Shown in pieces: positions 1 to 32,454 of a stretch of 64,000 nt of DNA (positions are counted from its first letter, which is position 1; every line of letters begins with the position of its first letter). Source of the DNA: an uncultured Dehalococcoidales bacterium (GTDB taxonomy: Bacteria > Chloroflexota > Dehalococcoidia > E44-bin15); the NCBI GenBank assembly GCA_964443325.1, contig CAYUCL010000006.1, forward strand, positions 14,644 through 78,643. Reading direction: 5' to 3'. The notes beneath the pieces were generated by a model that did no database searches, was not told the DNA's origin, and worked only from the letters and a program-made list of their open reading frames with translations. The translations under genes were made by a program, and so were the position numbers.

Positions 1-313
1 CGCTCGAGGCTTTGTCTTCTGGGTGGTGCGAGAGCTGCTGATGAATGTGGTCAAGCACGCTGAGGCGCAAGCGGTCACGGTATCGGTTTGTAGAGATGAC
101 GGCGAGCTACGGGTGGTGGTTGAGGACAATGGGGTCGGATTCGACACGTCGGAAATGGAACAGAGGACCCGCGGCTTCGGCCTGTTCAGCATACGGGAGC
201 GATTGACCGAGTTCGGGGGGCAGTTTGAAGTGGAATCGGAGCCGGGCAGGGGAACGTGGGTGACTCTTGTTGCGCCACTGGAAAGCGGTGGCGAGAGCAC
301 AGGAGGAAACTGA
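1..313 (+). CDS. Histidine kinase, C-terminal HATPase_c fragment (5'-truncated by window start); HisKA_3/NarX-like family
   Basis: Translation VVRELLMNVVKHAEA...DNGVGFDTSE...GFGLFSIRERL...GRGTWVTLVAPL shows the N-, G1- and G2-boxes of an HATPase domain. It is about 80% identical to the C-terminus of the kinase at 2272-3840. The stop is separated from the next start by one base (TGA 311-313, ATG 315-317). Confidence 0.75.
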   Translation, partial: ARGFVFWVVRELLMNVVKHAEAQAVTVSVCRDDGELRVVVEDNGVGFDTSEMEQRTRGFGLFSIRERLTEFGGQFEVESEPGRGTWVTLVAPLESGGESTGGN

Positions 314-3840: not shown

Positions 3841-3842
3841 GG

Positions 3843-6061: not shown

Positions 6062-6126
6062 CATGGAGGAGAAGGAGAGCATCCTCATAGTTGTGGAAGT
6101 GCCAGCAATCAATTGAGAACTACAGG

Positions 6127-14209: not shown

Positions 14210-14512
14210 CTAAGTGAGGACTTCAATGACCTTCATCACTACAATCATGCCAAAGACCATTAGCAAGGGGGCGATGCCCACACTGAGACGATTCCCCAGC
14301 ATTTGAAATCGCCGCCCCACGCTGGCGCCGGCAAGCTCCTTCGTTGCCAAGAAAGCGATTAGAAGGATGACTGCCACAGCGCCTAACGTAGCCATGGATG
14401 CGACAGAGGCTGTGGTGGTAGTGGTAGTGGTCACCGCACTTGTTACTGCACTTGTTACTGTCGAAATCATTTGTTCACCGCCCTTGTTACTGTTGAAATC
14501 ATTTGCGTTCAT
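14210..14512 (-). CDS. Small hypothetical 2-TM membrane protein with a tandemly repeated Thr-rich N-terminus
   Basis: The ORF reads MNANDFNSNKGGEQMISTVTSAVTSAVTTTTTTTASVAS, then two hydrophobic segments (MATLGAVAVILLIAFLA; VGIAPLLMVFGMIVVMKVI). The 5' end holds nucleotide direct repeats (AAATGATTTC(A/G)ACAGTAACAAG x2; AGTAACAAGTGC x2). The start may be the second ATG at 14470, which has an upstream GGGCGGTG. Confidence 0.4.
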   Translation of the reverse strand: MNANDFNSNKGGEQMISTVTSAVTSAVTTTTTTTASVASMATLGAVAVILLIAFLATKELAGASVGRRFQMLGNRLSVGIAPLLMVFGMIVVMKVIEVLT

Positions 14513-14630
14513 GATAAGGCATGCTTTTAAATTGTGCAATCGGGGAATCCCTGAATTTGTACTTCTAAATACCTGAGTTTGCAGGTAGCTGAAAACATGT
14601 TCGAAGGCTGCATGTGTTACCTGCCGCTGA

Positions 14631-14834
14631 CCGGTCTCCTCGACTTGGTACGCCCAGAAGGCCGACAAGTGCGAGGCGCTCCAGCTTGTAGCTGAAGGCA
14701 AAGCCACAGAGGCGATTATGTACACTCGCTGCGTAGGCGCTATTGGCGTCGAAACGAGCCGTCAACAAACTGCGAACAGGATGAGTATTCGCGGTGTAGG
14801 TGAGCTAACCGAATATGTCATCCTCCACTGTTGA
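14631..14834 (+). pseudogene. Decayed remnant of a LuxR-type HTH (response-regulator C-terminus)
   Basis: The frame translates ...YAQKADKCEALQLVAEGKATEAIMYTRCVGAIGVETSRQQTANRMSIRGVGELTEYVILHC*. This is collinear with [56 protein letters not shown] of the intact regulators. There is no receiver domain and no start. It runs directly into URE copy C. Confidence 0.55.
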
Positions 14835-14940
14835 CCTGTCCTATTGGCGTTATTGCGTGACAGATTCAGGTATTTCGAAGCCCAAAATCAGGGATTTCCT
14901 GATTGTAGACTGAGGTATAACGATGTAGTTTAAGGATGTT
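14825..14940 (+). repeat. URE copy C (CCACTGTTGACCTGTCCTATTGGCGTTATTGCGTGACAG plus two TCAGG(K)ATTTC repeats plus the GATTGTAGACTGAGGTATAACGATGTAGTTTAAGG box)
   Basis: Family member. It lies 230 nt upstream of the ATG at 15171. Confidence 0.8.
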
Positions 14941-15170
14941 AACTACTAGCTTGGGTAGGATTGAATACGATTTGTAGGGTTACGTCATACGGTAAGTCAG
15001 ATCCAGCTAGAAGGTTGTGCTCAGGACTCTTGGTGAGGATTGCGGCATTAGGCACAGCGGAGCTCGATGGCTGAATGTAGATAACCGGTAAGTTACAGTC
15101 GGAGGCGTTATTCAAGGGCCAACCGATTGAGACCTAGCGGCATCGTCCTCTACTGTAGGGAGCGCACAGG

Positions 15171-16253
15171 ATGTTAAAACAGGATGAGATGAAAACGCAA
15201 CTCCTAGATAAGCTGCCAGCATTGTTGCAGCCAACTGCTGAGTTGGAAGCATCAGAAACCGAGCGCAAGCGGGCGGAGGAGGCACTGGAGAAATCCGAAG
15301 GACTGTCCCGAGGCCTGATAGAGGCTGCGACAGTCGGCATATACATTGTCCAAAATGGGAAGTTCCAGTATGTCACCCCAGAATACGCACAGATTTCGGG
15401 TTACACAGTTGATGAGCTTTTAGGGACTTATTCTCTCAATTATATCCACCCGGACGATAAAGAGACGGTCAGAAAGAAAGCAGTAGAGCACCTGAAGGGT
15501 AAGAATGGGATACCCTACAAGTTTAGGCTTGTATGTAAGGACGGCAGGATATTGTGGGGTTTGGAGAAGGTTGCTTCCATCCGGTACAAAGGGAGGCCAG
15601 CAACGGTAGGAAGCTTTAGGGATATCACCGAGCGCAAACAGGCTGAGGAGACGTTCAGACAGAGTTTGGAAAAACTGGAAAGAATATTGGGGCAAACGGT
15701 CAATGCGCTGGCATCGGTGGTCGAATTAAGGGATCCCACAATGGCTGGTCACCAGAGGCGGGTAGCCCACCTGGCGAGCGCTATAGCCAGTGAGATGGGG
15801 CTCCTAGAGGATCAGATTAGTGGAATCTATATGGCCGGGCTTGTTCACGATGTGGGCACGGTATATGTGGCTGAAGAAATCCTCAGAAAGCCCGGTCGGT
15901 TAGATGAGGTTGAATTCAGCATGGTGAAAGTTCAGCCTCAAGCCTCTTACGACATATTGAAGACGATAGAGTTCCCATGGCCGGTTGCCGAGATGGTGCT
16001 TCAGCATCGCGAAAGGATGGATGGGTCTGGCTATCCTGCCGGTTTATCGGGTGAAGATATTCTCCTGGAAGCGAGGATTTTGGGGGTAGCTGAAGTTGTC
16101 GAGGCTATGACCTCCGACCGATCTTACCGACCAGCTCCGGGCATAGATGCAGCCCTGGCTGAGATTTTAAACAACCGGGGCATCCTATATGACCCGGTGG
16201 TGGTAGATACCTACTTGAGGCTCTTCAACGAGAATAGGTTTAAGTTCGAGTAG
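15171..16253 (+). CDS. PAS-HD-GYP domain protein (c-di-GMP phosphodiesterase type) with coiled-coil N-terminal leader
   Basis: Leader MLKQDEMKTQLLDKLPALLQPTAELEASETERKRAEEALEKSE. PAS: GIYIVQNGKFQYVTPEYAQISGY...DITERKQAEE. HD-GYP: HQRRVAHLASAIA...GLVHDVG...HRERMDGSGYPAGLSGEDI. 360 aa. About 85% identical to 18548-19630. Confidence 0.85.
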   Translation: MLKQDEMKTQLLDKLPALLQPTAELEASETERKRAEEALEKSEGLSRGLIEAATVGIYIVQNGKFQYVTPEYAQISGYTVDELLGTYSLNYIHPDDKETVRKKAVEHLKGKNGIPYKFRLVCKDGRILWGLEKVASIRYKGRPATVGSFRDITERKQAEETFRQSLEKLERILGQTVNALASVVELRDPTMAGHQRRVAHLASAIASEMGLLEDQISGIYMAGLVHDVGTVYVAEEILRKPGRLDEVEFSMVKVQPQASYDILKTIEFPWPVAEMVLQHRERMDGSGYPAGLSGEDILLEARILGVAEVVEAMTSDRSYRPAPGIDAALAEILNNRGILYDPVVVDTYLRLFNENRFKFE

Positions 16254-16294: not shown

Positions 16295-16603
16295 ATGGTT
16301 GAGCATGTCAACGATTTTCAGACGCTTCCGAAAAACAACTTCAAGAGCAAATATTCTGCTAAGATCATAGATATCTTGGAAAACCCTCAACTGGCCGAGG
16401 CGGACGGCATCTTTGCCACGCCGACAGTGATCAGAACTTGTCTAGTACCAATCAGGAGAATAGTGGGGAGCCTCGGCGAGCAAGAGAAGGTACTGGCGAT
16501 GTTGTATTTGGAGGAGACAAAGCTAGGGTTGGCCGTGTCCGCCTTTGTCGGGCCAGCAGGAAGTCTTCTCTCCTCTTCTGGAGTGAATGTGTCAGCAGCT
16601 TAA
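16295..16603 (+). CDS. KaiB-like protein (lacks the usual first beta-strand; has a roughly 35-aa Gly/Ser-rich C-terminal tail)
   Basis: Residues 20-75 are SAKIIDILENPQLAEADGIFATPTVIRTCLVPIRRIVGSLGEQEKVLAMLYLEE. They align with the KaiB core ([22 protein letters not shown]...PVRRIIGDLS..EKVLIGLDLL); the KaiB sequence is quoted from memory. An in-frame stop at 16268-16270 prevents N-terminal extension. Confidence 0.6.
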   Translation: MVEHVNDFQTLPKNNFKSKYSAKIIDILENPQLAEADGIFATPTVIRTCLVPIRRIVGSLGEQEKVLAMLYLEETKLGLAVSAFVGPAGSLLSSSGVNVSAA

Positions 16604-16700: not shown

Positions 16701-16729
16701 GCTAGCGGTAACAGGCAACAAAAAGGATT

Positions 16730-16900
16730 GAATCGCAGACCGTTCGTGGTGAGCCTGTCGAACCATGAACGGCCCTTCGACAAGCTCAGGACAGGCCCTT
16801 CGACAAGCTCAGGGCAAGCGGATTAAACGCCACCCACCTGCCGGGGGACCGGGGGTGGGCATATGTCATTATGAGTAGGGGCGGGTTTGAAACCCGCCCC
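16730..16900. repeat. GC-rich palindromic repeat (CCGTTCGTGGTGAGCCTGTCGAACCATGAACGG...GGGCGGGTTTGAAACCCGCCCC)
   Basis: Same family as 1265-1480 and 20225-20440. The GGGCGGGTTT(G/C)AAACCCGCCCC hairpin also occurs at 26700-26730. Confidence 0.7.
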
Positions 16901-17021: not shown

Positions 17022-17195
17022 TATCGACTTCACTTTTCCTCCGACTTATGCCTAAACTCCCACTGTTGATCTGTCCTATTGGCGTTCTTGCGTGACAAAC
17101 TCAGGTGTTTCGAAGCCCAAATTCAGGTATTACAGGCCATAAATCAGGGGTTTCCCGATTGTTCAGTTAAGCATCACGATGTAATGTAGGAATGT
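17022..17195 (+). repeat. URE copy D (extended form with the 5' TTTTCCTCCGACTTATGCC...CCACTGTTGATCTGTCCTATTGGCG arm, three direct repeats and the ATGTAATGTAGGAATG box)
   Basis: Family member. A kinase remnant and then the orphan LuxR regulator lie downstream. Confidence 0.8.
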
Positions 17196-17199
17196 GGGC

Positions 17200-17615
17200 A
17201 ATTAACTTGGGTAAAAAAAGGCGACAATGCTGGAGGAGATACCAAGAACGAAAGGCAAAGCAAGCGAAAATGATACCGTTCTTGAAGGACTGGACCGCGG
17301 GTTACTACTGGATGCCATCAACCTCAAAGGACATACAAGATGGCGTCCTTGTTTTCCTTTGGGTCCGATCTGCTCCATACTTGCGGATCGGACCCACTTG
17401 AACAAGGGGACAGCCGGCACCGCGTGGAGGCAGACTGCGTTGGGAGTTGCACATGGGCTTGGTGCATAGGGTATGCAAAGATGAAGTGAGAAGACCGCGA
17501 CGAGCGCTGGAGCTGTACATGCGTTGTGAACTCGAATCCAAGCTCGCCCATACAACGCGGGTCACCCGTGTCGTGCCGATCGGGCATGTTGAAGAGAACA
17601 TAGGGGGCAACTAAG
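17200..17615 (+). pseudogene. Decayed histidine-kinase C-terminal remnant immediately upstream of the orphan LuxR regulator
   Basis: The frame ending at 17613-17615 (TAA) reads ...RVTRVVPIGHVEENIGGN*, collinear with ...GTWVTLVAPLESGGESTGGN* and ...GTRVILVAPLDCSDESEQGH* of the intact kinases. Further upstream DRGLLLDAINLKGH resembles the N-box region RGLLFWVVRELLLNVVKH. There is no intact ORF or start. Confidence 0.5.
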
Positions 17616-18269
17616 TTGAGTGTGAGAGTTATACTTGCAGACGACCACAGGATCATTCGCGAGGGGCTCCGCGCCATGCTTGAGAAGGAGCCCGACATGG
17701 AGGTGGTTGCCGAAGCGGATAATGGGCGAGCAGCGGTAGAGCTGGCGCGGGAGCTAAAGCCCGACATCATCGTCATGGACCTTACCATGCCTGAATTGAA
17801 CGGTATTGAGGCCACTCGACAGATCCTCGCCAGTGACCCCGGTGTCAAGGTACTTGCCCTGTCAATGCATTCAGACAAACGTTTTGTCACCGGAGTGCTC
17901 AGTGCGGGTGCATCGGGCTATCTATTAAAGGACTGTGCATTGGAGGAGCTGGTGCGGGCGATCCGCGCCGTGGTCGCAGACCAGACCTATCTGAGTCCGG
18001 GAATAGCTGGCATTGTGGTCGACGACTACATGCATCGCCTGCCACCGACCGACGACTGCACTTTGTCCGCCCTGACGGCAAGGGAGCGCGAGGTGCTACA
18101 GCTTATAGCTGAAGGCAAGGCCCTAAAGGAGATTGCATCCACTCTCAACTTGAGTGTTAAGACTATTGAAACACACCGCCAGCAAATCATGAAGCGGTTG
18201 GACATACACAGTGTAGCTGAACTCACCAAATATGCCATCCGCGAAGGACTGACCTCCCTCGAAAGCTGA
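17616..18269 (+). CDS. NarL/LuxR-family response regulator (orphan; third paralog)
   Basis: TTG start with AGGGGG 9 nt upstream. MSVRVILADDHRIIREG...IIVMDLTMPELNG...TAREREVLQLIAEGKALKEIASTLNLSVKTIETHRQQIMKRL. 217 aa. Confidence 0.85.
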   Translation: MSVRVILADDHRIIREGLRAMLEKEPDMEVVAEADNGRAAVELARELKPDIIVMDLTMPELNGIEATRQILASDPGVKVLALSMHSDKRFVTGVLSAGASGYLLKDCALEELVRAIRAVVADQTYLSPGIAGIVVDDYMHRLPPTDDCTLSALTAREREVLQLIAEGKALKEIASTLNLSVKTIETHRQQIMKRLDIHSVAELTKYAIREGLTSLES

Positions 18270-18299: not shown

Positions 18300-18420
18300 C
18301 GTTGCCCTTTCCTAATCATGTCCCTGAGTTACCATCTCAGGTATTTCGAAGCCCAAAATCAGGGATTCCCCGCCCAAACTCAGGCGTTTCCCGATTGTGC
18401 ACTGGGTCGTAAGGGTGTAT
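18300..18420 (+). repeat. URE copy E (three direct repeats plus CCCGATTGTGCACTGGGTCGTAAGGGTGTATTTTACAC)
   Basis: Family member. It lies 128 nt upstream of the ATG at 18548. Confidence 0.75.
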
Positions 18421-18547
18421 TTTACACATATCACATATAATAGAGACGAGCCTGAGCGAACAGGTTGAAATGGCGGCGGCGGCCACGTACCGACCGGTGA
18501 GTTGGGAGGATACGTGTCCGTAATTATGTTTTTTGGTGGGACAAGAG

Positions 18548-19630
18548 ATGGTAAAGCAACATACGGCGAAAGAGCAAGTCACAAACGAGTTGGCGGCGTT
18601 GCAGCAGCGAATCAGTGAACTGGAAGCAGCGGAAGCCGAGCACAAGCGAGTGGAGGAGGCACTCAGGGAATCTGAAGAACTGTCGCGAGGCCTGATCGAG
18701 GCGGCCACAGTCGGCACATACATTGTCCAGGATGGAAAATTCCAGTATATCAACCCGGAGTACGCACAGATTTCAGGTTACACCGCGGATGAGCTTCTGA
18801 TGACATATTCCCTCGATTACGTCCACCCTGACGACAGAGAGGCAGTCAGGACGAAGGCGATAGAGCACCTGAAGGGCCGCGATAGGAGATCCTACGAGTT
18901 CAGGCTTGTGCGCAAGGATGGGGAGATACGGTGGATTCTGGAGAGGGTCGCTTCCATCCCTTACAAAGGGCAGCGAGCAACGATAGGAAGCTTTATGGAT
19001 ATCAGCGAGCGCAAGCGGGCGGAGGAAGCGCTCAGATACAATGTTGAAAGACTGCAAAGAATGCTGGGGCAGACGGTTGGTGTGCTGGCATCAGTTGTTG
19101 AAGTGAGGGACCCCACCACCGCTGGTCACCAGCGGCGAGTGGCCCACCTGGCGAGTGCCATAGCCAGCGAGATGGGCCTAATAGCGGATCAGATCACTGG
19201 AATCTATATGGCCGGGCTTGTTCACGATGTGGGAGCGATATATACCCCCAGCGATATCCTCACTAAGCCGGGCCGGCTGGACGATGCTGAATTCAGCATG
19301 GTGAAAGACCAGCCGCGGGTCTCCTATGACATATTGAAGATGATAGAGTTCCCGTGGCCGGTGGCCGAAGTGGTCCTCCAGCACCGAGAAAGGATGGACG
19401 GGTCTGGCTATCCTGCTGGTCTATCGGGCGAAGATATCCTGCTTGAGGCGAGGATTCTGGGCGTGGCCGACGTGGTGGAGGCCATGACCTCCGACCGCCC
19501 CTACCGTCCGGCTCCGGGCATAGATGTAGCCCTGGAGGAGATCTCAAAGAACCGGGGCATCCTGTATGACCCGGTGGTGGTAGATACCTGCTTGAGTCTC
19601 TTCAACGAGAAGAAGTTCAAGTTTGAGTAG
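18548..19630 (+). CDS. PAS-HD-GYP domain protein (paralog of 15171-16253)
   Basis: Leader MVKQHTAKEQVTNELAALQQRISELEAAEAEHKRVEEALRESEE, then a PAS domain and an HD-GYP domain (HQRRVAHLASAIASEMGL...HRERMDGSGYPAGLSGEDI). ATG at 18548 has GGTGGG upstream; the ORF-track TTG at 18533 is an alternative. Confidence 0.85.
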   Translation: MVKQHTAKEQVTNELAALQQRISELEAAEAEHKRVEEALRESEELSRGLIEAATVGTYIVQDGKFQYINPEYAQISGYTADELLMTYSLDYVHPDDREAVRTKAIEHLKGRDRRSYEFRLVRKDGEIRWILERVASIPYKGQRATIGSFMDISERKRAEEALRYNVERLQRMLGQTVGVLASVVEVRDPTTAGHQRRVAHLASAIASEMGLIADQITGIYMAGLVHDVGAIYTPSDILTKPGRLDDAEFSMVKDQPRVSYDILKMIEFPWPVAEVVLQHRERMDGSGYPAGLSGEDILLEARILGVADVVEAMTSDRPYRPAPGIDVALEEISKNRGILYDPVVVDTCLSLFNEKKFKFE

Positions 19631-19639: not shown

Positions 19640-19870
19640 GGTGTAAATCCCGATCGAGTCGCAGGGTTACGCCGCCCATAGTTGAGTATGTCAGCGGTCA
19701 CCTCGAGACGAGCGTGGCATTTCACCAAGGCCTAGGGAACTTGGTGCTCAAGGTCAGTGCCGCCGACGGTGGTCAGGACCCGCCCGGCTCCAGTCAGGAG
19801 AATAGTGGGGAGCCTCGGCGAACCAGAGAAGGTAATGGCGATATTGTGTTCGGAGGAGACGAGCTAGTAC
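19640..19870 (+). pseudogene. Frameshifted, decayed KaiB-like remnant (paralog of 16295-16603)
   Basis: The nucleotide stretch CCAGTCAGGAGAATAGTGGGGAGCCTCGGCGAACCAGAGAAGGTAATGGCGATATTGTGTTCGGAGGAGAC matches 16445-16515 of the KaiB-like gene. It reads VRRIVGSLGEPEKVMAIL only in a frame different from the surrounding ORF, and no intact ORF remains. Confidence 0.45.
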
Positions 19871-20224
19871 TAGAGCGCCCAGATATGATCGTGGCAATTA
19901 CAAGGATCGGGTCAGTTGAAAAATGTAGTTGCCCAATTCATTGGGTTGGTCGATATATGTCATTTGTTGATCTGTCCTATCCGCCTTTGTCGGCACAGGA
20001 GGAGGTCTTATCTCCTCTTTATGGAGTGAATATGGCAGCCGCTTAACCTATATGGGGTAGGTTGGAGCATCCGCTCCAACCACACCTTGAGCAAATGCCC
20101 GACAGGGTCGGATCATTCGACTCAAGGCTACCCTATTTGGGTAAGCGCCCCGATATGATCGGGGCAACTACAGTTACTGCTGGTGGCTAGCGGTAATAGG
20201 CAACAAAAAGGAATGAGTCGCAGA

Positions 20225-20344
20225 CCGTTCGTGGTCAGCTTTACACCGTTCGTGGTCAACTGTATACCATTCGTGGTGAACTGTACACCGTTCGTGGTGA
20301 ACTGTACACCGTTCGTGGTGAACTGTACACCGTTCGTGGTGAGC
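20225..20344 (+). repeat. 21-bp tandem repeat, about 5.5 copies of CCGTTCGTGGTGAACTGTACA
   Basis: Units at 20225, 20246, 20267, 20288, 20309 and 20330 with 0-4 mismatches. The same 21-mer is single-copy in the paralogous spacer at 16750. Confidence 0.85.
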
Positions 20345-20459
20345 TTGTCGAACCATGAACGGCCCTTCGGTGAACTCAGGACAGGCCCTTCGACAAGCTC
20401 AGGGCAAACGGACTAAACGCCACCCACTTTCCGGGTGTCTGGGGGTAGGCATATGTCAA

Positions 20460-20590
20460 TCGTTGACCTGTCCTATTCGCCTTCTTGATTGACAGACTCA
20501 GGTGTTTCGAAGGTAAAAATCAGGGATTCCACGACCGAACTCAGGGATTTCCCGATTGTGGGCTGAGCCATAACAATGTAGTGTAGGCAT
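20460..20590 (+). repeat. URE copy F (TTGACCTGTCCTATTCGCCTTCTTGATTGACAG plus three TCAGG(K)ATT(T/C)C repeats at 22/21-bp spacing plus the CCCGATTGTGGGCTGAGCCATAACAATGTAGTGTAGGCATG box)
   Basis: This is the best-preserved full-length copy. The giant sensor gene lies downstream. Confidence 0.8.
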
Positions 20591-20658
20591 GAGTGTAACT
20601 AACTAGAAAAAACCATCTACGGTTAGGAAGATTCCAGTACGATGGCGGGGGCTGCTAT

Positions 20659-20895
20659 ATGAAGAGCTGGTTATCTATGGGCCTTTCTCATAGGGGAGAG
20701 GCTTTATATTTTTTAGGTGGTATCGGTGGTGTTGTGCTTCAGACTATGGAGCGTCGCTATTCCGCGACACCCAAACAGGCTGAAAGCGTGTCGGCAGCGA
20801 ATCTATTGGATGAGGTGATATATCGTCACATCAAAACGGGTGACGGGCTGTGGTTGCCTGAAATTGCCGCTCTTTTTAGGAGGCACACGAAATGA
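20659..20895 (+). CDS. Hypothetical 78-aa protein in the leader of the giant sensor gene (stop overlaps its ATG as ATGA)
   Basis: ORF MKSWLSMGLSHRGEALYFLGGIGGVVLQTMERRYSATPKQAESVSAANLLDEVIYRHIKTGDGLWLPEIAALFRRHTK. I recognise no known domain. A weak GGCGGGGG lies upstream. It could be non-coding 5'-UTR. Confidence 0.25.
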   Translation: MKSWLSMGLSHRGEALYFLGGIGGVVLQTMERRYSATPKQAESVSAANLLDEVIYRHIKTGDGLWLPEIAALFRRHTK

Positions 20896-23800
20896 AAGAT
20901 CAACACAAGACAAAAGAGCAACTCATTAAGGAATTGGCGCAGATGCGCCAGCGACTCGCTGAATGTAAAGTATCAGAAGCCGAGCGAAAGCGGGTGGAGG
21001 AGGAAGTAAAGCAACTGAGTTCTGCTGTTGATCAGTCCATTGACGGCATAGCCATAGGTGACCTTGAACCGAAGATGACGTATGTCAACGATGCCTTTGC
21101 CCAGATGCACGGCTACTCGCCCGAGGAAATGATGGGGATGAAAGTTGCGAACCTGCACAACGAGGAACAGATGGACGAGTTCAAAACGGGTATCGATCAG
21201 ATAATGACGCAGGGTTCATGGATGGGTGAAATAGGGCATGTTAGAAAGGATGGAGCGCCTTTTCCCACATACATGTCGGTTACTTTGTTGAAGGATAGCG
21301 ACGGCAATCCGACAGGAATTGTGGCAGTTGCAAGAGACATCACCGAGCGCAAGCGGGCGGAGGGGGCGCTGCGGGAGTCGGAGGAGAAGTTCTCCAAGGC
21401 CTTTCGTTCCAGCCCTATCCCGATGGTTATTGCGGTGCTTGAAGATGGACGCGCTATCGATGTAAACGAAAGTCTTTTACATATGACCGGCTATTGTCGC
21501 GAAGAGTTCAGAGGTCGGAAGAGGGGCGAACTGGGTTTCTGGGTAAATCCAGAGAACCATGCCAGAATAGTGCAGATATTGCGTGACCAGGGGCAGATTC
21601 GCGATAGAGAGGAGGAGTATCGCATAAAGTCGGGCGAGATCCGTACCGCGCTGACTTCAGCAGAGATAGTTCACATTGGCGATGAACTGTGCGCGCTCTA
21701 CGTACTCAATGACATCACCGAGCGAAAGCGGGCGGAGGAGGCGCTGCGTGAGACTGAGAACCGCTACAAGGCCATCTTTGATAACCGGCTGCAGATGGTC
21801 TACATCAATGATGGCAAGGGGCTTTTTCTTGACGCCAACGATTACGCTCTGGAGCGGCTAGGATACACTCGCGATGATCTTGGAAAGGTCTCGTTCCAGG
21901 ACATGATCCATCCAGACGACCTTCCAGCGATACTACAAGTTTTTTCAGAGATCTTGACCAAGGGCTCCATGGAACGCTCTATTGAAATTCGCCTCGTTAC
22001 CAAATCCGGAGAGATAATCTGGGTTGAGACTTTCGGCATTCCCCTTGAGCGCGATGTTGACCATTATATGGCTCTGGGTATTGCAAATGACATCACCGAG
22101 CGCAAGAAGGCAGAGGAGGCGCTGCGGGAGAGCGAGGAAAAATATCGCCATGTGGTCGAGCGGGCAAATGACGGCATTCTGATTATTCAGGATGGGACAA
22201 TCAAGTATGCCAATCGGCGTGCGGAGGAATTAAGCGGGTACATTTTTGCACAGACCACTGAGGCGCAGTTTATTAATTATCTCCATCCCGATGAAATTCC
22301 CAAAGTGGTTGAGCGATACCAGCGACGTATGGCAGGGGAGGATGTCGAACCGGTATATGAGACGATTATGAGGCGCGAAGACGGCAGTGATATATATGTC
22401 GAGATCAATGCAGGAACAATTTCATATCGGGGAGAACCGGCGGATCTTGTTTTCATCCACGACATCACCGAGCGCAAGCAGGCAGAGCAGGCGTTGAGGC
22501 AGTCCGAGTACAAATTTAGAACTGCCCTTGAGTCGGCAAGGGATGGCATCCTCATAACTAGTAACGATGGCTCAGTGGTGGACATCAACAGGACGTTGCT
22601 GAACGCTTTGGGATACGATTCTAAGGAGCAAGTCATCGGTAGAAACTCTCTTGAGCTTCTTGCGGTCGAGCGATCCCAAAAGCAACTGGATGGCGTGCGA
22701 CGGGAGATGGCTCAAAAAGGCCACATTAGCAACGTGGAGTTAATGGGACTCACCCGCGATGGTAGAAAGGTGCCGGTTGAGGTAACCGTCTCCAACATGA
22801 CTGACGACGAAGGGCAGCCTGCAGGGTCTATTGTTGTAATAAGGGATATCACCCAACGCAAGAGGGCTGAGGAGGCGCTGAAGGAGTCGGAGGAGTTGTC
22901 CCGGGGAATGCTGGAGGCCGCAACGATCGGTATATACATCGTCCAGGATGGGAAATTCCAGTATGTCAACCCGCAGTTCGAGCACATAGGGGGCTACACT
23001 GCGGATGACTTTTTAGGGAAAGATTCTCTCGAGCATGTCCACTCTGAAGATAGAGAGATGGTCAGGAAGAAAGCGATAGAGCAATTAAAGGGACAGAGTA
23101 CCCAGCCATATGAGTACAGGTTTATATGTAAGGGCGGAGGGGAATTGTGGATACTGGAGAAGGTCAGTTCCATCCAGTATAAAGGGAAACCGGCGGCGAT
23201 CGGGAGCTTTATAGACATCACCGAGCGCAAGCAGGCGGAGGGGAAGCTAGAACGTTTGAACCTCGTGCTTCGCACCATCGGCGACGTCAACCAGCTCATC
23301 GCTAAAGAAAAGGACCGCGACAAGCTGATTAAAGCGACCTGCGACGCCTTCCTCGAGCATAGCAGTTACTATAATGCCTGGATGGCCCTGTTTGATGAGT
23401 CAGGAGAGCTTGTTGCCACTGCCGAAGCTGGCCTGGGCAATAATTTCCTGCCAATGGTAGACCAGCTCAAGCGTGGTCAGTTGACCAAATGCGGGCGCAG
23501 GGCGCTGAGGCAATCGGGCGTTGTGGTAACCAAAGACCCGTCTTCAACATGTCGTGATTGCTCATTAGCGGACAAGTACCCAGGCAGAGCGGCCATCACC
23601 ACCCGGATAGAATACGAAGGAAGGGTCTACGGCCTGCTGTCCGCCTCGATGCCACGAGCTTTCATCACGGAGGAACAAGAGCTATCCCTGTTCAAAGAGG
23701 TTGCCGCCGACATCGCTTTCGCCCTCTACACCATAGAACTGGAGGTGGAGCGCAAGCGGATGGAGGAGGCACTTCGGGAGAGCGAGGAGAGGCTCAGGGC

Positions 23801-26186
23801 GCTCATACAGAACGCCCCTGACGCCATCTATACCAACGACCTTGAGGGCAATTTCACCAGTGGGAACAAAAAAGCAGAGGAATTGGTCGGCTATTCCCGG
23901 CAGGAGCTCACCGGTGAGAACTTCTTCGATAAAGGGATTCTACCTGGGGAGTATGTCCCCAAAGCGATAGAGCTTCTGGAAAGGAACAGGAGAGGTGAAC
24001 CGACGGGGCCTGATGAATTTGAATTGGTCAGGAAGGACGGCACCAGTGTGGTCGTGGAGATATCGACCTTCCCGGTGAACAGAGGAGGGGAGGTTGAGAT
24101 TATGGGCATAGCCCGCGACATTACCGAGCGCAAGAAAGCAGATGAGGCGCTACGGGAGAGCGAGGAAAAACTGCGTGCCACATTTGGGACCATGTCTGAT
24201 GCGATAGCTGTTACCGATGTATCCGGCAATCTCGTAGACATAAACGAGGCAACAGTGCGCCTGCTTGGTTACAGGCAGAAGGAAGAGCTTATCGGGAGAA
24301 ACGCTCTTGATCTTATCGCTGAAAGAGACAGGGCTAAGGCTGCGGAAGATATTGGAAAGGCATTGGTAGAGGGGGACACTTCGCTCACAGAGTATGCGTT
24401 GCTGACCGAAAACGGTGGAGAAGTAGAGATCGAGGCGAGCGCTGCCCTCCTGCGTGACGGATCCGGGAATCCGGCAGGGGTAATCGCGGTAATGAGGGAT
24501 ATCACCGAGCGCAAGCGGGCGGAGGAGGAGATTCATCGCTACAACAAGCGGCTTGAAGCGCTCCACGCCATCAGCGCCGCGGTGAGCCAGACCATGGACC
24601 TGGATGAGATGCTAAACAGCGCCCTGGAGAAGGTGCTTGAGGTTACTGAGACACAGGCAGGCTATATACATCTCTATGACTGGGAAAGAAAGGAACTTGC
24701 TCTAAGGGCCCATCGGGGGATATCCGAGAAGTATGCTGCAACTCTGGAAAGATTGCCGGTGAGTGAGAAAGTCATACGGCGCTGGCAGAACAAGCCGGAG
24801 CCCAGTTTCAGGGCGCGTGGAATTGTAAGCGAGCTCGCTGATAGTGAAGCAACCGCCGCCGAGCTGGAAGACGGCATAGCAGTGCTGGCGACACTGCCCC
24901 TGGCGTCCAAATCGGGGATGCATGGAGGTTTGACCCTTGTCGGCGGCACACGCCGCTGGTTCTCCCCCGAGGAGCTGGAGCTTCTCAAGGCTATATGCAA
25001 CGAAATAGCGGTGGGCATAGAGAACGCCGAGCTACTCGAGAGAACGAGAGAGCTATCGGTGACTGATGAGCTGACCGAGCTGTACAATCGCCGCCACTTC
25101 TACGAGGTGCTTGAGAACGAGATGGCCCGCACGCAGCGCTATGGTGGCTGCTTCACTCTGGCAATGCTCGACCTTGATGAATTCAAGCAATACAACGATA
25201 GATTTGGGCACACCAATGGCGATGCCATCCTGAGGTCCGTTGGCCAAACGCTCAGGTCGCAATTGAGGAATGCCGACATGGTCTTTCGCTACGGGGGCGA
25301 TGAGTTCACCCTCGTCCTGCCGGCAACTGATGCGGCAAAAGCCAGGAAGATTGTGGACCGCATCAGGGTAAAAAGGTTACAAGGGCTTAAGGCCGATAAT
25401 GAAGGTTTGGAACACTGTCTCGGGTTCAGCGCTGGAATCGCTCAGTTCCCTGAGAATGCTGAAACGGCGGATGCCCTGGTATTCCTGGCCGACGCTGCCC
25501 TGTACCGTTCCAAGAGAGGGGGAGGAGGTAAATCTACGCTGGTCTCCGAGCTGGGGGGACTTGCAGCGGGCGCCCTGGACAGTGCAACCATGGACCAGGT
25601 CTATGCCCTGGCGGCTATGGTAGATGCCAAGGACCCGCATACCTATGGTCACTCGAAGAGGGTCGCCACAATATCGGAAATGATAGGCAAAGAAATCGCT
25701 CTACAGCCAAAAGAGCTAGCCGACTTACGCGCCGCTGCCCTGCTGCATGATATTGGCAAAGTGGGCGTACCCGACTCGATCCTGACCAAATCTGGCAAGC
25801 CGACAGAGCATGAATGGAAAATCCTAAAGAAGCACCCTGTTGAAGGGGCTAGGATCATAGGCTATGTGAAGGAACTCGAAGGGTTGGTGCCCTTAGTGCG
25901 GCACCACCACGAGTGGTGTAACGGCACCGGCTATCCAGATGGGCTAAGGGGAGAAGACATACCCCTTGGCGCCAGGATCATAAGCATAGCTGATGCCTAT
26001 GACACCATGACCACGCAGCGTCCCTACCGGGATGTCGTGTCTCAGGAAGAGGCACTTGAGGAACTGAGGCGGTGTTCTGGGACGCAGTTCGACTCTGAGC
26101 TTGTTGAGGCGTTTGGCCGCGCTCTGAATAGGACTATTCAGCAAGATGCTGGCAAAATGAAGTCCCCCTCTTTAGTCACGAAATAG
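20892..26186 (+). CDS. Giant multidomain signalling protein: coiled-coil leader - PAS x6 - GAF-like - PAS x2 - GAF - GGDEF - HD-GYP (1764 aa)
   Basis: Strong RBS AGGAGG 8 nt before the ATG. Eight DITERK(R/K)AEEALRESEE PAS linkers. GGDEF motif VFRYGGDEFTLVLP. HD-GYP: HSKRVATISE...LHDIGKVGVPD...HHHEWCNGTGYPDGLRGEDIP. The C-terminal roughly 550 aa is about 85% identical to the C-terminus of 6127-8970. Confidence 0.9.
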   Translation: MKDQHKTKEQLIKELAQMRQRLAECKVSEAERKRVEEEVKQLSSAVDQSIDGIAIGDLEPKMTYVNDAFAQMHGYSPEEMMGMKVANLHNEEQMDEFKTGIDQIMTQGSWMGEIGHVRKDGAPFPTYMSVTLLKDSDGNPTGIVAVARDITERKRAEGALRESEEKFSKAFRSSPIPMVIAVLEDGRAIDVNESLLHMTGYCREEFRGRKRGELGFWVNPENHARIVQILRDQGQIRDREEEYRIKSGEIRTALTSAEIVHIGDELCALYVLNDITERKRAEEALRETENRYKAIFDNRLQMVYINDGKGLFLDANDYALERLGYTRDDLGKVSFQDMIHPDDLPAILQVFSEILTKGSMERSIEIRLVTKSGEIIWVETFGIPLERDVDHYMALGIANDITERKKAEEALRESEEKYRHVVERANDGILIIQDGTIKYANRRAEELSGYIFAQTTEAQFINYLHPDEIPKVVERYQRRMAGEDVEPVYETIMRREDGSDIYVEINAGTISYRGEPADLVFIHDITERKQAEQALRQSEYKFRTALESARDGILITSNDGSVVDINRTLLNALGYDSKEQVIGRNSLELLAVERSQKQLDGVRREMAQKGHISNVELMGLTRDGRKVPVEVTVSNMTDDEGQPAGSIVVIRDITQRKRAEEALKESEELSRGMLEAATIGIYIVQDGKFQYVNPQFEHIGGYTADDFLGKDSLEHVHSEDREMVRKKAIEQLKGQSTQPYEYRFICKGGGELWILEKVSSIQYKGKPAAIGSFIDITERKQAEGKLERLNLVLRTIGDVNQLIAKEKDRDKLIKATCDAFLEHSSYYNAWMALFDESGELVATAEAGLGNNFLPMVDQLKRGQLTKCGRRALRQSGVVVTKDPSSTCRDCSLADKYPGRAAITTRIEYEGRVYGLLSASMPRAFITEEQELSLFKEVAADIAFALYTIELEVERKRMEEALRESEERLRALIQNAPDAIYTNDLEGNFTSGNKKAEELVGYSRQELTGENFFDKGILPGEYVPKAIELLERNRRGEPTGPDEFELVRKDGTSVVVEISTFPVNRGGEVEIMGIARDITERKKADEALRESEEKLRATFGTMSDAIAVTDVSGNLVDINEATVRLLGYRQKEELIGRNALDLIAERDRAKAAEDIGKALVEGDTSLTEYALLTENGGEVEIEASAALLRDGSGNPAGVIAVMRDITERKRAEEEIHRYNKRLEALHAISAAVSQTMDLDEMLNSALEKVLEVTETQAGYIHLYDWERKELALRAHRGISEKYAATLERLPVSEKVIRRWQNKPEPSFRARGIVSELADSEATAAELEDGIAVLATLPLASKSGMHGGLTLVGGTRRWFSPEELELLKAICNEIAVGIENAELLERTRELSVTDELTELYNRRHFYEVLENEMARTQRYGGCFTLAMLDLDEFKQYNDRFGHTNGDAILRSVGQTLRSQLRNADMVFRYGGDEFTLVLPATDAAKARKIVDRIRVKRLQGLKADNEGLEHCLGFSAGIAQFPENAETADALVFLADAALYRSKRGGGGKSTLVSELGGLAAGALDSATMDQVYALAAMVDAKDPHTYGHSKRVATISEMIGKEIALQPKELADLRAAALLHDIGKVGVPDSILTKSGKPTEHEWKILKKHPVEGARIIGYVKELEGLVPLVRHHHEWCNGTGYPDGLRGEDIPLGARIISIADAYDTMTTQRPYRDVVSQEEALEELRRCSGTQFDSELVEAFGRALNRTIQQDAGKMKSPSLVTK

Positions 26187-26884: not shown

Positions 26885-27030
26885 ATTTTTCCTACCACTT
26901 ATGCCACAGCTTCCACTGTTGACCTGTCCTATTCGACTTCTTGATTGACAAGACTCAGGTGTTTCGAAGGCACAAATCAGGGATTTCCCGATTGTGCACT
27001 GAGCTATCATGTTGTAGTTTGGGCATATTA
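26885..27030 (+). repeat. URE copy G (extended 5' arm, two direct repeats, CCCGATTGTGCACTGAGCTATCATGTTGTAGTTTGGG box)
   Basis: Family member. It lies 85 nt upstream of 27116. Confidence 0.8.
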
Positions 27031-27115
27031 GCAGAAGACATGGGGCAGAATAAGTTAGGGATCCAAAATCCCGTTTTGGGATAGGAAATTTCAGATTATA
27101 CGACGGAGGTGAAAC

Positions 27116-27580
27116 ATGCTAGCGGCGGCGATGGTTTTCGCACTTATGGGTGGAGTGGCGTATCTCTTAGCAGGTCTTGTCGTCACTATTGTAGGCGTAC
27201 CTGTGGGCGACGCTTGGACCACCGCTACTCTGACAAGTGCACCCTGGTGGATAGTAATGATGATACCAATCGGATTAGCTGGCATTATCGGCGGCGGTTG
27301 GGTACGCTGGAACCGCAATGCAGGGGGAATTCTATTGTGGCTGGCTAGCGCCGCTTTTATTGTGATCGGCCTGGTTTCGATACGTGAAGTGCTGGCGTTA
27401 ATTGCTGATAGTCCTCTCTCCGTGCAAGGCTGGCAATGGATCATTTTGCTAGCTTTGGTTTCCTATTTTATAGGGGCACTGCTGGCACTGATGCTGGGGG
27501 GCACTTTATCTTTGGTTGGGGGGATGAGGGAAACTCAAGCCAAGGGTTCGCTAAGAACGGCAAAGGCGAAGAGCATGTGA
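27116..27580 (+). CDS. Hypothetical integral membrane protein (4 predicted TM helices)
   Basis: MLAAAMVFALMGGVAYLLAGLVVTIVG..., WWIVMMIPIGLAGIIGGGWV..., ILLWLASAAFIVIGLV..., WIILLALVSYFIGALLALMLGG. I recognise no known domain. First gene after URE copy G. Confidence 0.55.
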   Translation: MLAAAMVFALMGGVAYLLAGLVVTIVGVPVGDAWTTATLTSAPWWIVMMIPIGLAGIIGGGWVRWNRNAGGILLWLASAAFIVIGLVSIREVLALIADSPLSVQGWQWIILLALVSYFIGALLALMLGGTLSLVGGMRETQAKGSLRTAKAKSM

Positions 27581-27965
27581 AGGGTGCCCACGGCCGTGTA
27601 GTCGCTTTTCGGACTGCCAAGATTCTTCGACTTCACAGTGAAGTGATAAAGGCGATGATCTAAATCAAGGGACCGCTGGACAAGAAGAGTTGAGAAGAGG
27701 AATGTGCCCTCGGTGCTAAGAAAGATACGAAACAGGAAAGCTGTTCTTGGCTTAGGTTTCTCCGTCGGTGAAGTAAGCCCGTGTTCCATCATCCATTAGC
27801 GCGATTACCGGTAAAGTTGCTACCGCTAGACCGGGCATCTTCTCAACCGGTTTTGTTTCTACCTTTTTCCTTGTAGCAATCCGGTAAAACATGAGGTGGT
27901 CTGTGTCAGAAGCTGGGGTATATCGATATAGAAGCAAAGATATCCAGAGAGAACGAGAGGTGGCC

Positions 27966-30029
27966 ATGTCTATCAACAAAGAGGGCCAGGAAAGCGCATC
28001 TTTCGGATATGCGGTAGAGCGTAGGCGGGCGAGAGAAGGGAGGAGGGTTACGGATGGTGCCATAGCCGCATCGATAAATGCTATTGCCATCGCTGACCTG
28101 GACGGCAATTTGACATATGTAAATAGGTCTTTTCTGCAAATGTGGGGATATGCTTCGGAGAAAGACGTTCTCGGAAGGCCTGCTGTAGAATTATGCCAGG
28201 CGGCAGATAAAGCTGGGGCGGTAGTGGCGGCACTATTCGAAAGAGGGGGCTGGCAAGGAGAGTTAGTCGCCTTAAGAAGGGATGACTCAACGTTTGATGT
28301 CCAGCTATCAGCAAGCATGATTACCGATGTGGCTGGCAAGCCAGTACGCATGGTGGCCTCACTTATCGACGTTACCGAGCGTAAGCAGGCAGAACGCATG
28401 CTTCGGGAAAAGAACGAGCAACTGGATGCTCAGAATGAAGAGCTTCACTTGCAGCGGGAAGAACTGGTAGGACAGCAAGAAGAGCTTAAAGAAAAAACGG
28501 CGCAACTAGAAGAGGCTAGCAAGCTGAAATCCGAGTTTTTGGCTAGAATGTCGCATGAACTCCGTACGCCACTTAATGCCATTATTGGCTTCTCTGAGTT
28601 AATGCTGGATGGTATCCCCGGTGGAGTCAATGATGAGCAGAAACAGTGCCTTGCCGACATATTAGATAGTGGTCGACACCTACTGAGCCTCATTAACGAC
28701 GTCCTGGACCTGTCTAAAGTAGAGGCGGGAAAGATGGAGTTCAGACTGGAAGACGTGGATATGGCTGACGTTATCGGTAGCGTAGTTCAAAGTGTCAGAC
28801 CCATGCTCCACGAAAGCAGACATAGGTTGACGGTAAGCATTCAAGAAGGGCTGCCACAAGTTCGCGCCGATGAAGGCAGATTAAGGCAGATATTTCTTAA
28901 TCTGCTGAGCAACGCTATCAAATTCACACCATCTGGTGGTAAGCTCGATATCCAGGCCAGTGGGGATGGCGATTGGTGCCAAGTTAGTGTGGTTGATAAT
29001 GGCATAGGCCTCAGGGAGGAGGATCAGACACGGATATTCGACGCTTTTATGCAGGCAGAGGCTGTACTTGAGGGAAGGAAAGAAGGTACTGGGTTGGGTC
29101 TAGCACTTACCAGGCAAATCGTCGAGACCATGGGCGGCACGATATGGGTAGAGAGCACATACGGGAAGGGGAGCAAATTCAGTTTTGCCCTTCCACTGGC
29201 AAGAGAGGGCGAGCCTTATATATTGGGGGAAGCACCGTTCGCAATTCCGGGGAAAAAACTCCCTGAGGCAAAGGAAATGCCTCTTAAGCCAGGACAGAAG
29301 CGAATCTTGGTAGTGGATGACGACCGCATGGCACGAAGTCTGTTAAGGGCTTGGCTGGAAAGAGAAGGCTATGCCGTCGTTGAAGTATCGAGCGGTGATG
29401 ATGGGATTGAGGAGGCCAATAAGCTGATGCCAGAAGCGGTTGTACTAGATATATTGATGCCTAGAAAGGATGGCTGGCAGGTGCTCCGGGAGCTTAAGTC
29501 AACGCCGAGGACAAGAGAAATCCCAGTGGTGATTACTTCAATTGTTGAAAGAAAAGGGTATGGTTTTAGCTTGGGAGCGGTGGACTACTTCGTCAAGCCT
29601 GTTGATAGGCAAGAGTTTCTGGAAAGGATAGCCGAGGTTGGTCTTCAGCCTCGAGAGAAAGTCTTGGTGATGGACGATAATCCTGCTGATGTTCGCCTGG
29701 TGGCTTCTATCCTTGAATCGGAAGGCATCGCGGTACTCCGTGCTTACGGGGGTGAGGAGGGACTGCGAGTAGCAAAGGAGGATAGGCCGGCACTAATACT
29801 GCTGGATATATTAATGCCTGACTTGAGCGGATTCGAAGTGATAGAGAAGTTACGTGCCGACGAAGAAACCAGAAATATCCCGATAATTGTGCTAACCGTA
29901 AAGGACTTGAGTGCTGAGGAATTAAAAGTACTCAGCAGACAGACAACGGCGATTATGAGGAAGGCAATCTTAAGACGCGGAGCCTTCTTATCGGAAGTGA
30001 AGAATGCTCTCGGGCTGGGTAAAAATTAG
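27966..30029 (+). CDS. Hybrid sensor histidine kinase: PAS-HisKA-HATPase_c-REC-REC
   Basis: H-box MSHELRTPLNAIIGFSELM. N/G boxes (LLSNAIKFT, DNGIGL, GTGLGLAL). Two receivers (RILVVDDD...VLDILMPRKDG; KVLVMDDN...LLDILMPDLSG). ATG at 27966 has GAGAGGTGG upstream; the ORF-track start 27891 is an extension. Confidence 0.85.
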   Translation: MSINKEGQESASFGYAVERRRAREGRRVTDGAIAASINAIAIADLDGNLTYVNRSFLQMWGYASEKDVLGRPAVELCQAADKAGAVVAALFERGGWQGELVALRRDDSTFDVQLSASMITDVAGKPVRMVASLIDVTERKQAERMLREKNEQLDAQNEELHLQREELVGQQEELKEKTAQLEEASKLKSEFLARMSHELRTPLNAIIGFSELMLDGIPGGVNDEQKQCLADILDSGRHLLSLINDVLDLSKVEAGKMEFRLEDVDMADVIGSVVQSVRPMLHESRHRLTVSIQEGLPQVRADEGRLRQIFLNLLSNAIKFTPSGGKLDIQASGDGDWCQVSVVDNGIGLREEDQTRIFDAFMQAEAVLEGRKEGTGLGLALTRQIVETMGGTIWVESTYGKGSKFSFALPLAREGEPYILGEAPFAIPGKKLPEAKEMPLKPGQKRILVVDDDRMARSLLRAWLEREGYAVVEVSSGDDGIEEANKLMPEAVVLDILMPRKDGWQVLRELKSTPRTREIPVVITSIVERKGYGFSLGAVDYFVKPVDRQEFLERIAEVGLQPREKVLVMDDNPADVRLVASILESEGIAVLRAYGGEEGLRVAKEDRPALILLDILMPDLSGFEVIEKLRADEETRNIPIIVLTVKDLSAEELKVLSRQTTAIMRKAILRRGAFLSEVKNALGLGKN

Positions 30030-30062
30030 GTTGGTCGATTTAGACTGTGGGGTTAACAGACA

Positions 30063-30449
30063 ATGCCGGAGAAAATACTGATCGTAGAAGATAACCCCCA
30101 GAGTATGAGGGTAGCTCTAATGACGCTCAGGCCACACGGTTATAGCTTGCTTCAGGCAACGGATGGGGAAGAGGCCCTCGCAGTTGCTACCGGGGACAAA
30201 CCAGACCTCATCATAATGGATTTACAGCTTCCCAAAGTGCATGGACTTGAGGCAACAAGAAGGCTCAGGCAGATGCCAGACTTTGGAGGTATTCCTATAA
30301 TTGCAGTCACTGCGCATGCCATGAAGGGAGATGAGGAGAAGGTTTTTGAAGCTGGGTGCGATGCCTATTTGCCAAAGCCGATCAATACTCGCGAGTTGGC
30401 TAGAGTGGTTGCCGAAATGCTGCTTAAGCGCAAGAAAGCTAATGCTTAG
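30063..30449 (+). CDS. CheY-like single-domain response regulator
   Basis: 128 aa. ILIVEDNPQSM...LIIMDLQLPKVHG...IIAVTAHAMKGDEEKVFEAGCDAYLPKPI. Confidence 0.85.
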   Translation: MPEKILIVEDNPQSMRVALMTLRPHGYSLLQATDGEEALAVATGDKPDLIIMDLQLPKVHGLEATRRLRQMPDFGGIPIIAVTAHAMKGDEEKVFEAGCDAYLPKPINTRELARVVAEMLLKRKKANA

Positions 30450-30460
30450 CTTTAAAGTGG

Positions 30461-32089: not shown

Positions 32090-32328
32090 GGTGCAGGGGC
32101 TGGCCTAGAGTACACAAGGCGACAACTCATAGCTAAAGGCCAGTCCCCAAAGGATACCACAGACGATCATAGCACGAGCGCTGAGACTAATGATACTTAT
32201 CGCCAGCACATCATGGACAGGTTTAACATTCTTGGCGTAGCCTATCTCCCCAAATATATCTTCTCAGAAGTATTGCTTTCCCTAGGAGACTAACCCCGCA
32301 TTAGTTTAGAACGCCGCATCCACCGTAG

Positions 32329-32450: not shown

Positions 32451-32454
32451 AGGT

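Follow-up and report, generated by a model that had tools for sequence, protein, structure and literature searches.

The window, that is, the whole 64,000-nucleotide stretch of contig CAYUCL010000006.1 analysed here, derives from an uncultured Dehalococcoidales bacterium. Pfam scans of its open reading frames (ORFs) identify two-component kinases and response regulators, proteins of cyclic di-GMP (c-di-GMP) turnover that carry GGDEF and HD-GYP domains, and the two arms of a glycan cluster rich in glycosyltransferases. Set among these genes is a repeated module of ~100-150 bp, in which two or three direct repeat units beginning (C/A)TCAGGKATTTC run into promoter-like hexamers. A preliminary description of the window had listed ten copies and had read the element as an array of transcription-factor sites on one face of the helix that marks a regulon, leaving open whether it is a promoter, an operator or a mobile cassette.

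With at most one mismatch, TCAGGKATTTC matches the window 27 times, compared with 2.25 matches expected, a number reached by none of 100 shuffles; the proximal-unit pattern TCAGGNNTTNCCYGAT occurs 12 times, compared with 0.14 expected. The alignment and profile model that had been proposed as a check were carried out: a profile built from copies aligned on the GATTG box and searched against the window returned exactly 11 copies (E = 9e-34 to 1.3e-14), namely the ten already listed, each at its correct position, and one that had been missed, e11 (Table 1). Tandem Repeats Finder independently detects arrays of period 21-22 at 1541-1588, 18351-18392 and 32360-32414, inside three of the copies. 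As claimed earlier for the ten, each of the 11 copies is intergenic and faces the gene downstream of it or lies ahead of gene remnants; two pairs are divergent (e11/e3 and e9/e10). Pairwise comparison of copies with 1.2-kb flanks limits their homology to about -100 to +50 around the box, stopping before the downstream genes. These genes are non-homologous and share similar upstream regions (a kinase, a GGDEF/HD-GYP protein, a membrane protein, a GT2 glycosyltransferase and UDP-glucose dehydrogenase), and Pfam agrees with the earlier descriptions of them as HD-GYP, GGDEF, kinase and LuxR genes, a membrane protein and hybrid-kinase operon, and glycan arms. In most copies the -10-like hexamer lies roughly 0-300 nt from the start codon.

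The originally reported two to three tandem units are present in every copy, with TCAGG starts 21-22 bp apart, a spacing of about two helical turns. Six of the copies are built of three units and the remaining five of two, and in alignments the two classes differ by exactly one 21-22 bp unit. The first unit reads CTCAGGT(A/G/T)TTTCGAAG in 10 of the 11, and the last reads (C/A)TCAGGGATTTCC(C/T)GATTG. This last unit, TCAGGGATTTCCCGATTG, continues into a -35-like TTGTGC followed 17 bp on by a -10-like TAGTTT, so that the proximal site abuts the predicted -35 (counted from the proximal TCAGG, TTG occupies +15..17 and TAnnnT +38..43). TAnnnT begins at exactly +38 in 10 of the 11 copies, and the -10-like hexamers are TAGTTT (five times), TAGTGT (twice), TAATGT, TATTTT and TATCAT. 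The box CCCGATTGTGCGCTGAGCCATAAC..TGTAGTTTAGG is found as first described, while the optional 5' arm is carried by e3-e8 and e10 only. In the window the proximal unit is near-palindromic, TCAGGGA-TT-TCCCGA (TCAGGGATTTCCCGA), and centred about -42/-43. Core promoters were judged by positional enrichment, as a generic sigma-70 consensus scan is too strict for the weak promoters of the window; that scan flags e11 alone (TTGCAC-17-TATCAT), which indicates weak core promoters and is consistent with dependence on an activator.

In e6, the TCAGG units start at 20498, 20520 and 20541 and are followed by a -35-like TTGTGG (20556-20561), a 17-bp spacer and a -10-like TAGTGT (20579-20584), from which transcription is predicted to start near 20591. 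The leader of ~300 nt between e6 and the gene for a 1764-aa protein contains no riboswitch detected by Rfam; it does contain a terminator-like hairpin (11 pairs) with a T-run at 20679-20714, which could be an attenuator. Another 21-bp tandem array, ACCGTTCGTGGTGAACTGTAC x5.7 (92% matches), lies just 5' of e6 at 20224-20342 and is unrelated in sequence to the TCAGG units. A repeat of ~140 nt, 88% identical between its two copies, occurs upstream of e4 (16729-16868) and e6 (20319-20458) and has GAGCTTGTCGAACCATGAACGGCCCTTCGACAAGCTCAGG-type sequence, a repeat type that is common in Chloroflexota intergenic DNA.

Table 1. Element copies (e1-e11) and candidate regulators (RR1-RR3) in the window, in order of position within each group, and riboswitches found behind the element in other organisms.
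Feature	Position	Strand	Units	Context
e1	1522-1642	+	3	PAS-gene remnant, REC-PAS-HisKA_3 kinase (2272-3840) and RR2 downstream
e2	4943-5062	+	3	450 nt past RR2; HisKA/HATPase protein (5111-6061), REC-PAS-GAF-GGDEF-HD-GYP protein (6091-8970), then sugar-nucleotide enzymes downstream
e11	14595-14497	-	2	divergent from e3; small ORF downstream (about 14210-14470) has no Pfam match
e3	14847-14945	+	2	just after decayed regulator remnant; PAS-HD-GYP gene (15171-16253) and KaiB-domain ORF downstream
e4	17082-17201	+	3	RR3 ~420 nt downstream
e5	18318-18437	+	3	49 nt past RR3 stop; second PAS-HD-GYP gene (18533-19630) downstream
e6	20479-20598	+	3	precedes 1764-aa multi-PAS/GAF/GGDEF/HD-GYP gene (20892-26186)
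e7	26935-27034	+	2	precedes operon 27116-31171: 154-aa membrane protein, hybrid kinase, CheY-like protein, OmpR-type regulator
e8	32342-32461	+	3	heads + strand glycan cluster (GT2 at 32455 to flippase-like gene 52004-53350)
e9	63425-63327	-	2	heads - strand glycan arm (UDP-glucose dehydrogenase 61802-63109 onward)
e10	63820-63918	+	2	divergent from e9; downstream gene outside window
RR1	267(315)-968	+		LuxR-type response regulator; follows PAS/HisKA_3 kinase that leaves the window's left end; e1 554 nt downstream
RR2	3740(3842)-4495	+		LuxR-type response regulator; in operon with kinase 2272-3840, downstream of e1
Regulator remnant	14643-14822	+		decayed LuxR-type regulator, residues 149-208, 45% identity (tblastn); immediately 5' of e3
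RR3	17616-18269	+		REC + GerE/LuxR (NarL/FixJ family); candidate binder of the repeats
c-di-GMP-I riboswitch, L225	173-293			RF01051
c-di-GMP-I riboswitch, L157	67-175	-		RF01051
c-di-GMP-I riboswitch, L166	1-51	-		RF01051

The element is retained in close relatives. Five orthologous loci (L084, L147, L209, L220 and L232) all hold the corresponding copies. Among them, L084, a contig of a Dehalococcoidia metagenome-assembled genome (MAG; CSMAG_854), is 93% identical to and syntenic with window positions 1521-8313, and L232 (NCBI contig, GCA_034430535.1) has an identical RR1 protein in the same gene order. Two JGI metagenome contigs (L125 and L150) are identical to the e1 region together with the flank upstream of it, and the window's organism is present in the metagenomes Ga0307432 and Ga0307430.

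A metagenome scan with the pattern TCAGGTDTTTCGAAG-N6-7-TCAGGKDTT found the two-unit core in 106 contigs, most of which resemble the element in its repeats only, without the window's arm or box. Conservation is also found at positions that this pattern left unconstrained. In 102 unique metagenome and window instances, CC(Y)GAT(TG) follows directly after the proximal TCAGGGATT, which yields the palindrome ATCAGGGATTCCCTGAT, and TTG at +15..17, A at +39 and T at +43 are conserved as well. Of 91 unique instances, 42 have TAnnnT starting at exactly +38 and another 17 have it one position to either side (+37 or +39), compared with a background mean of 1.8. Across many unrelated sequences, therefore, the repeats keep a set distance to a -35/-10 pair of ordinary type. 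Most metagenome instances carry TTGnnn-17-TAnnnT, TTGACA and TATAAT-like hexamers included. Units are offset by 21-22 bp or 43-44 bp, with a third unit (43-44 bp) in 15 of the 102. The MAGs that hold the element are labelled Dehalococcoidia, Chloroflexota, Acidobacteriota and Thermodesulfobacteriota, the last represented by L045. A scan of a genome collection used an over-degenerate pattern, CAGGKRTTTCCYGATTG, and nearly all of its 120 loci are chance matches; only L084 and L045 are real. In three metagenome loci of other organisms a c-di-GMP-I riboswitch (41-54 bits; Table 1) lies directly downstream of the element which, together with the HD-GYP and GGDEF targets in the window, suggests that the regulon is generally linked to c-di-GMP.

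The gene that recurs beside the element encodes a response regulator. RR1, RR2 and RR3 have nearly identical recognition helices (S-V-K-T-V/I-E-T-H-R-Q-Q-I), and these three genes and the regulator remnant precede e1, e2, e5 and e3, respectively. When the ORFs of the metagenome loci were clustered, two-component proteins were the dominant neighbour family (44 of 106 loci). A tight group of ~217 aa within this cluster consists of orthologs of the window's REC-LuxR regulators (52-64% identical), whose helix-turn-helix, S-x-K-T-x-E-T-H-R-x-x-I-M-x-K-L...A-E-L-T-K-Y-A-I-R-E-G-L, is nearly invariant. Of the 75 instances whose upstream sequence reaches 750 nt or more, 21 have such an ortholog on the same strand, its end 15-572 nt before the element. 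Including truncated contigs, there are 26 regulator-adjacent cases, and in 14 of them a single-domain CheY-like gene comes directly after the element. The adjacent regulators usually follow a large signalling protein of the same two-component cluster, verified as a PAS/HisKA_3 kinase by Pfam in regulator-seeded loci only. The closest solved homologs of the regulator are VraR (best, E = 1.6e-40) and NarL.

This association also appears in a test that is independent of the motif. Among loci retrieved through regulator homologs of 65-71% identity, the element or a close variant lies no more than 3 kb downstream of the regulator in six of seven lineages. A variant stands right after the regulator in a 4.8 Mb genome (L227) and in an acidobacterial locus, where it is ahead of a CheY-like gene (L231), and about 3 kb downstream in L237. 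The element itself lies past an adjacent CheY-like gene in a Chloroflexota locus (L235), about 60 nt past the regulator in L239/L240, accompanied by a second copy, and about 70 nt past the second of two tandem regulators in L241. The regulator duplication in L241 (6001-7883) comprises two 217-aa paralogs, and the element there precedes a STAS-domain gene. Regulator-seeded variants read, for example, AGGATTTTCGAACCC...TAAGGGTTTCCCCTATTG, so that TTTCGAA of the distal unit is conserved even where the pattern did not select for it. The 154-aa protein behind e7 is 55% identical to a 155-aa protein of L235, and the element is ahead of both, indicating that an orthologous target has kept the element. 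Regulators beside TAAGG-type variants carry H-R-R-(R/Q) in their recognition helix, whereas most regulators beside TCAGG carry H-R-Q-Q; the sequences are few and include exceptions (HRKR and YRKQ with TCAGG), and the pattern may reflect covariation of specificity.

The repeat structure, phasing, conservation and gene linkage are thus directly observed, and the proposal of a site array on one helix face has gained three lines of support: the distance from the repeats to the -35/-10 pair is fixed in the window and in ~90 unrelated metagenome instances, the number of units shifts by whole 21-22 bp steps only, and the element travels with an orthologous regulator across phyla. Where promoter, operator and mobile cassette had been left undecided, both an operator array and a core promoter are now favoured, and the cassette is disfavoured, as discussed below. 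The two kinds of regulator that had been suggested as binders fared differently. The LuxR type is supported by the linkage of its orthologs, while the OmpR-type regulator (30461-31171) was set aside, as its gene sits in the element-driven operon behind e7. From these sequences we consider it probable that the element is the binding-site array and weak promoter of the adjacent NarL/LuxR-type response regulator, duplicated locally, and that it defines a c-di-GMP/glycan regulon.

We propose the following mechanism, in which binding, activation and the transcription start are inferred. Two or three units would be aligned along a single helix face, the proximal one abutting a weak -35 (TTGTGC) that is separated by a 17-bp spacer from a weak -10 (TAGTTT). 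Phosphorylated RR1, RR2 and RR3 would bind the units as dimers two helical turns apart and would recruit RNA polymerase to this poor core promoter, in the manner of BvgA at the fha and ptx promoters. The predicted targets are genes of c-di-GMP turnover (the PAS-HD-GYP and GGDEF/HD-GYP proteins), a second two-component operon (e7) and both arms of the polysaccharide cluster (e8 and e9). The operon of kinase and regulator behind e1 and the regulator gene behind e4 would be targets as well, which would create feed-forward loops or autoregulation. The ancestral unit, an arrangement seen across phyla, may have been kinase, regulator, element and target gene in that order, the target often being a single-domain CheY-like gene. 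In the Dehalococcoidia lineage the regulator-plus-element segment would then have been duplicated repeatedly, with the regulator part decaying in some copies. No element occurs in the roughly 7.5 kb ahead of the kinase-RR1 operon (L233); this operon may be the input of the system.

Several points weigh against this interpretation. A regulator gene is adjacent in only about a third of instances, and one regulator-seeded locus, L229 (Sedimentisphaerales), is without the element. The distal unit, TCAGGTATTTCGAAG, is not palindromic, so that a pair of inverted heptads, as expected for each site, is approximated by the proximal unit only (TCAGGGATTTCCCGA in the window, ATCAGGGATTCCCTGAT in metagenomes), and both the model of one dimer per unit and the stoichiometry per unit are uncertain. 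The next intact gene is 420 nt away from e4 and 570-640 nt away from e1, with gene remnants following both; the long gap after e1 is explained by the N-terminal coding remnant of a PAS protein at 2031-2109, between e1 and the kinase gene at 2272. The distal unit and 9 nt of the proximal one were prescribed by the metagenome pattern, so that conservation there is ascertained rather than observed. Finally, copy count, orientation and intergenic placement cover 64 kb plus about 10 kb of the genome.

The strongest competing explanation, which we regard as unlikely, is that the repeats form an operator array for a different regulator, either the OmpR-type protein or a LytTR or AraC/XylS activator that is encoded elsewhere and binds as one monomer per direct repeat. 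Direct repeats with a period of 21-22 bp, the proximal one overlapping the -35, are the classic layout for LytTR and AraC/XylS activators, and the element fits it; TCAGGTATT agrees with the LytTR consensus at 7 of 9 positions, and conservation in all units is confined to the left half of the unit. However, neither a LytTR nor an AraC domain was found in any of the window ORFs scanned with Pfam, and neither family is enriched beside the element, where the recurrent adjacent gene is the LuxR-type regulator. The OmpR-type gene is itself a target of e7 and was noted elsewhere only in the same target operon of L235, without a systematic screen. Operators of LytTR regulators (AgrA, ComE, VirR) and of AraC/XylS activators resemble the element in their ~21-22 bp direct repeats at or just 5' of the -35; they differ in that the regulator linked to the element is LuxR-type and its proximal unit is palindromic.

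Considerably less probable is a selfish promoter cassette akin to a miniature inverted-repeat transposable element (MITE), spread by transposition, whose repeats would not be an operator. Such a cassette would account for the high density of copies (eleven per 64 kb), for the crowding of the same intergenic regions with other small repeats, and for a likeness among window copies that extends beyond a plausible binding site: the 5' arms are 64-86% identical, and both the -35/-10 spacer (49% versus 31%) and the -10 hexamer (74% versus 39%) are more alike among window copies than in unrelated instances. Yet no consistent terminal inverted repeats were found at any copy. Three of the five flanks scanned contain no inverted pairs, two short pairs around e7 recur nowhere else, and the pairs at 14400-15000 consist of the divergent e11/e3 and the proximal palindrome of e3. 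The element has no match in viral contigs, each copy in the 64 kb plus about 10 kb examined is intergenic and co-oriented with a gene, and beyond the lineage conservation is limited to the repeats and their distance from the -35/-10 pair. Furthermore, remnants of regulator genes lie upstream of some copies, which points to segmental duplication rather than transposition.

Signs of such duplication appear at e8, where a region of 330 nt upstream of the copy (including 32119-32290) is 68% identical to the sequence upstream of e5, the 3' end of RR3 included. These observations suggest that a segment of regulator plus element was duplicated locally several times to give the window copies, and that its regulator part later decayed. 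The 5' arm is probably a relic of this process: its conservation is poor in the e4 ortholog of the close relative L209, e1 and e2 lack it, and it is continuous with the flanks of decayed regulator genes. For the same reasons, we dropped the idea that the arm provides extra binding sites. The signalling genes at 1-26200 are themselves highly paralogous, with segmental repeats at offsets 3527, 3377 and 17195 and with a 51-nt coding repeat (the DITERKRAEE linker between PAS domains) present 19 times.

Slightly less credible again is a promoter for an alternative sigma factor, in which the repeats would be upstream or -35-like elements with no activator. This would agree with a block of sequence at a fixed position relative to the -10 and with the poor match of the window hexamers to the sigma-70 consensus. 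Against it, the metagenome instances mostly have ordinary TTGnnn-17-TAnnnT pairs, a variable count of identical units (two or three) is not a feature of sigma-factor promoters, and, short of a systematic screen, none of the Pfam-scanned window ORFs or of the genes called in the regulator-seeded loci was seen to encode a sigma factor. A structured RNA or 5' leader (a riboswitch or small RNA) can hardly be entertained, for although the first ~30 nt past the -10 are weakly alike among window copies and several copies have long leaders, Rfam finds no match in the window, RNAalifold applied to the 11 copies yields -1.29 kcal/mol and no compensatory pairs, and what is conserved precedes the predicted transcription start.

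Of the systems already known, the arrangement most closely recalls that of BvgA. Phosphorylated BvgA binds Pfha and Pptx as head-to-head dimers 22 bp apart on centre, on one helix face, with the proximal dimer abutting the -35, and the optimal, primary site of Pfha is TAAGAAATTTCCTA (PMC7250471), which resembles the element's TCAGGGATTTCCCGA and TAAGGGATTCCCCTA. The two systems share the regulator family (REC + GerE/LuxR), sites spaced by 21-22 bp or two helical turns along one helix face, a proximal site that abuts the -35, and a number of sites that varies by promoter. They differ in the half-site sequence and in the distal units, which in the element are not inverted heptads, and the element's sites are predicted ones. 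BvgA is only distantly related to the window regulator, to which VraR and NarL are closer, and it controls virulence genes, whereas the predicted targets of the element are c-di-GMP and glycan genes in an uncultured member of the Dehalococcoidia.

Promoters of the VraR/LiaR and RcsB type carry an inverted-repeat box just 5' of the -35, comparable to the near-palindrome of the element, and are often autoregulated, just as e1 stands ahead of a kinase/regulator operon and e4 ahead of a regulator gene. However, their motif sequences differ from that of the element, and such systems typically use one or two sites rather than phased arrays of three. At the level of genome organisation, the window may be compared with promoter reuse and putative mobile promoters in prokaryotes, as described by Nijveen, Matus-Garcia and van Passel, in which highly similar upstream regions precede unrelated genes of one genome (PMC3575422). 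Closely similar upstream regions before non-homologous genes are found here as well, but the copies are clustered in 64 kb, some are accompanied by regulator remnants, and their core is a cross-phylum operator. In our reading, the window fits the idea of promoter reuse, by segmental copying instead of transposition. A literature search on the motif strings returned unrelated papers only. The motif, the regulator family and the cross-phylum regulon appear to be undescribed in the searchable literature, while response-regulator operator arrays as such are well known.

Two further features of the surrounding genes may be mentioned. Directly after the PAS-HD-GYP gene driven by e3 is an ORF with a KaiB domain (16295-16603, E = 2e-14), and its positional counterpart behind the second HD-GYP gene (19714-20046) matches no Pfam family. 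An IS3-family transposase (rve, HTH_21; 54111-55016, minus strand), together with 55013-55363 (minus strand), is inserted where the glycan cluster divides into its two arms.

More tentatively, and with slightly less than even confidence in the whole of it, we propose that the element serves as operator in a widespread, uncharacterised two-component system of PAS/HisKA_3 kinase and NarL-type regulator that governs c-di-GMP signalling and surface polysaccharide. This system would be conserved across at least Chloroflexota, Acidobacteriota and Thermodesulfobacteriota, and elsewhere would drive genes that lie behind c-di-GMP-I riboswitches. The window would then be a regulon built in place, in which the regulator half decayed after copying and left a ready-made inducible promoter before new genes.

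For an uncultured lineage of Dehalococcoidia, this provides a testable regulatory map, in which one regulator family, one operator and eleven promoters would tie c-di-GMP turnover to the synthesis of exopolysaccharide. As the same operator occurs beside the same regulator in several phyla, and before c-di-GMP riboswitches, the motif could be used to predict the regulon in many environmental genomes. On this reading, the window would also be a clear example of a regulon that grew by duplication of a promoter-operator module and not by the gain of sites through point mutation.

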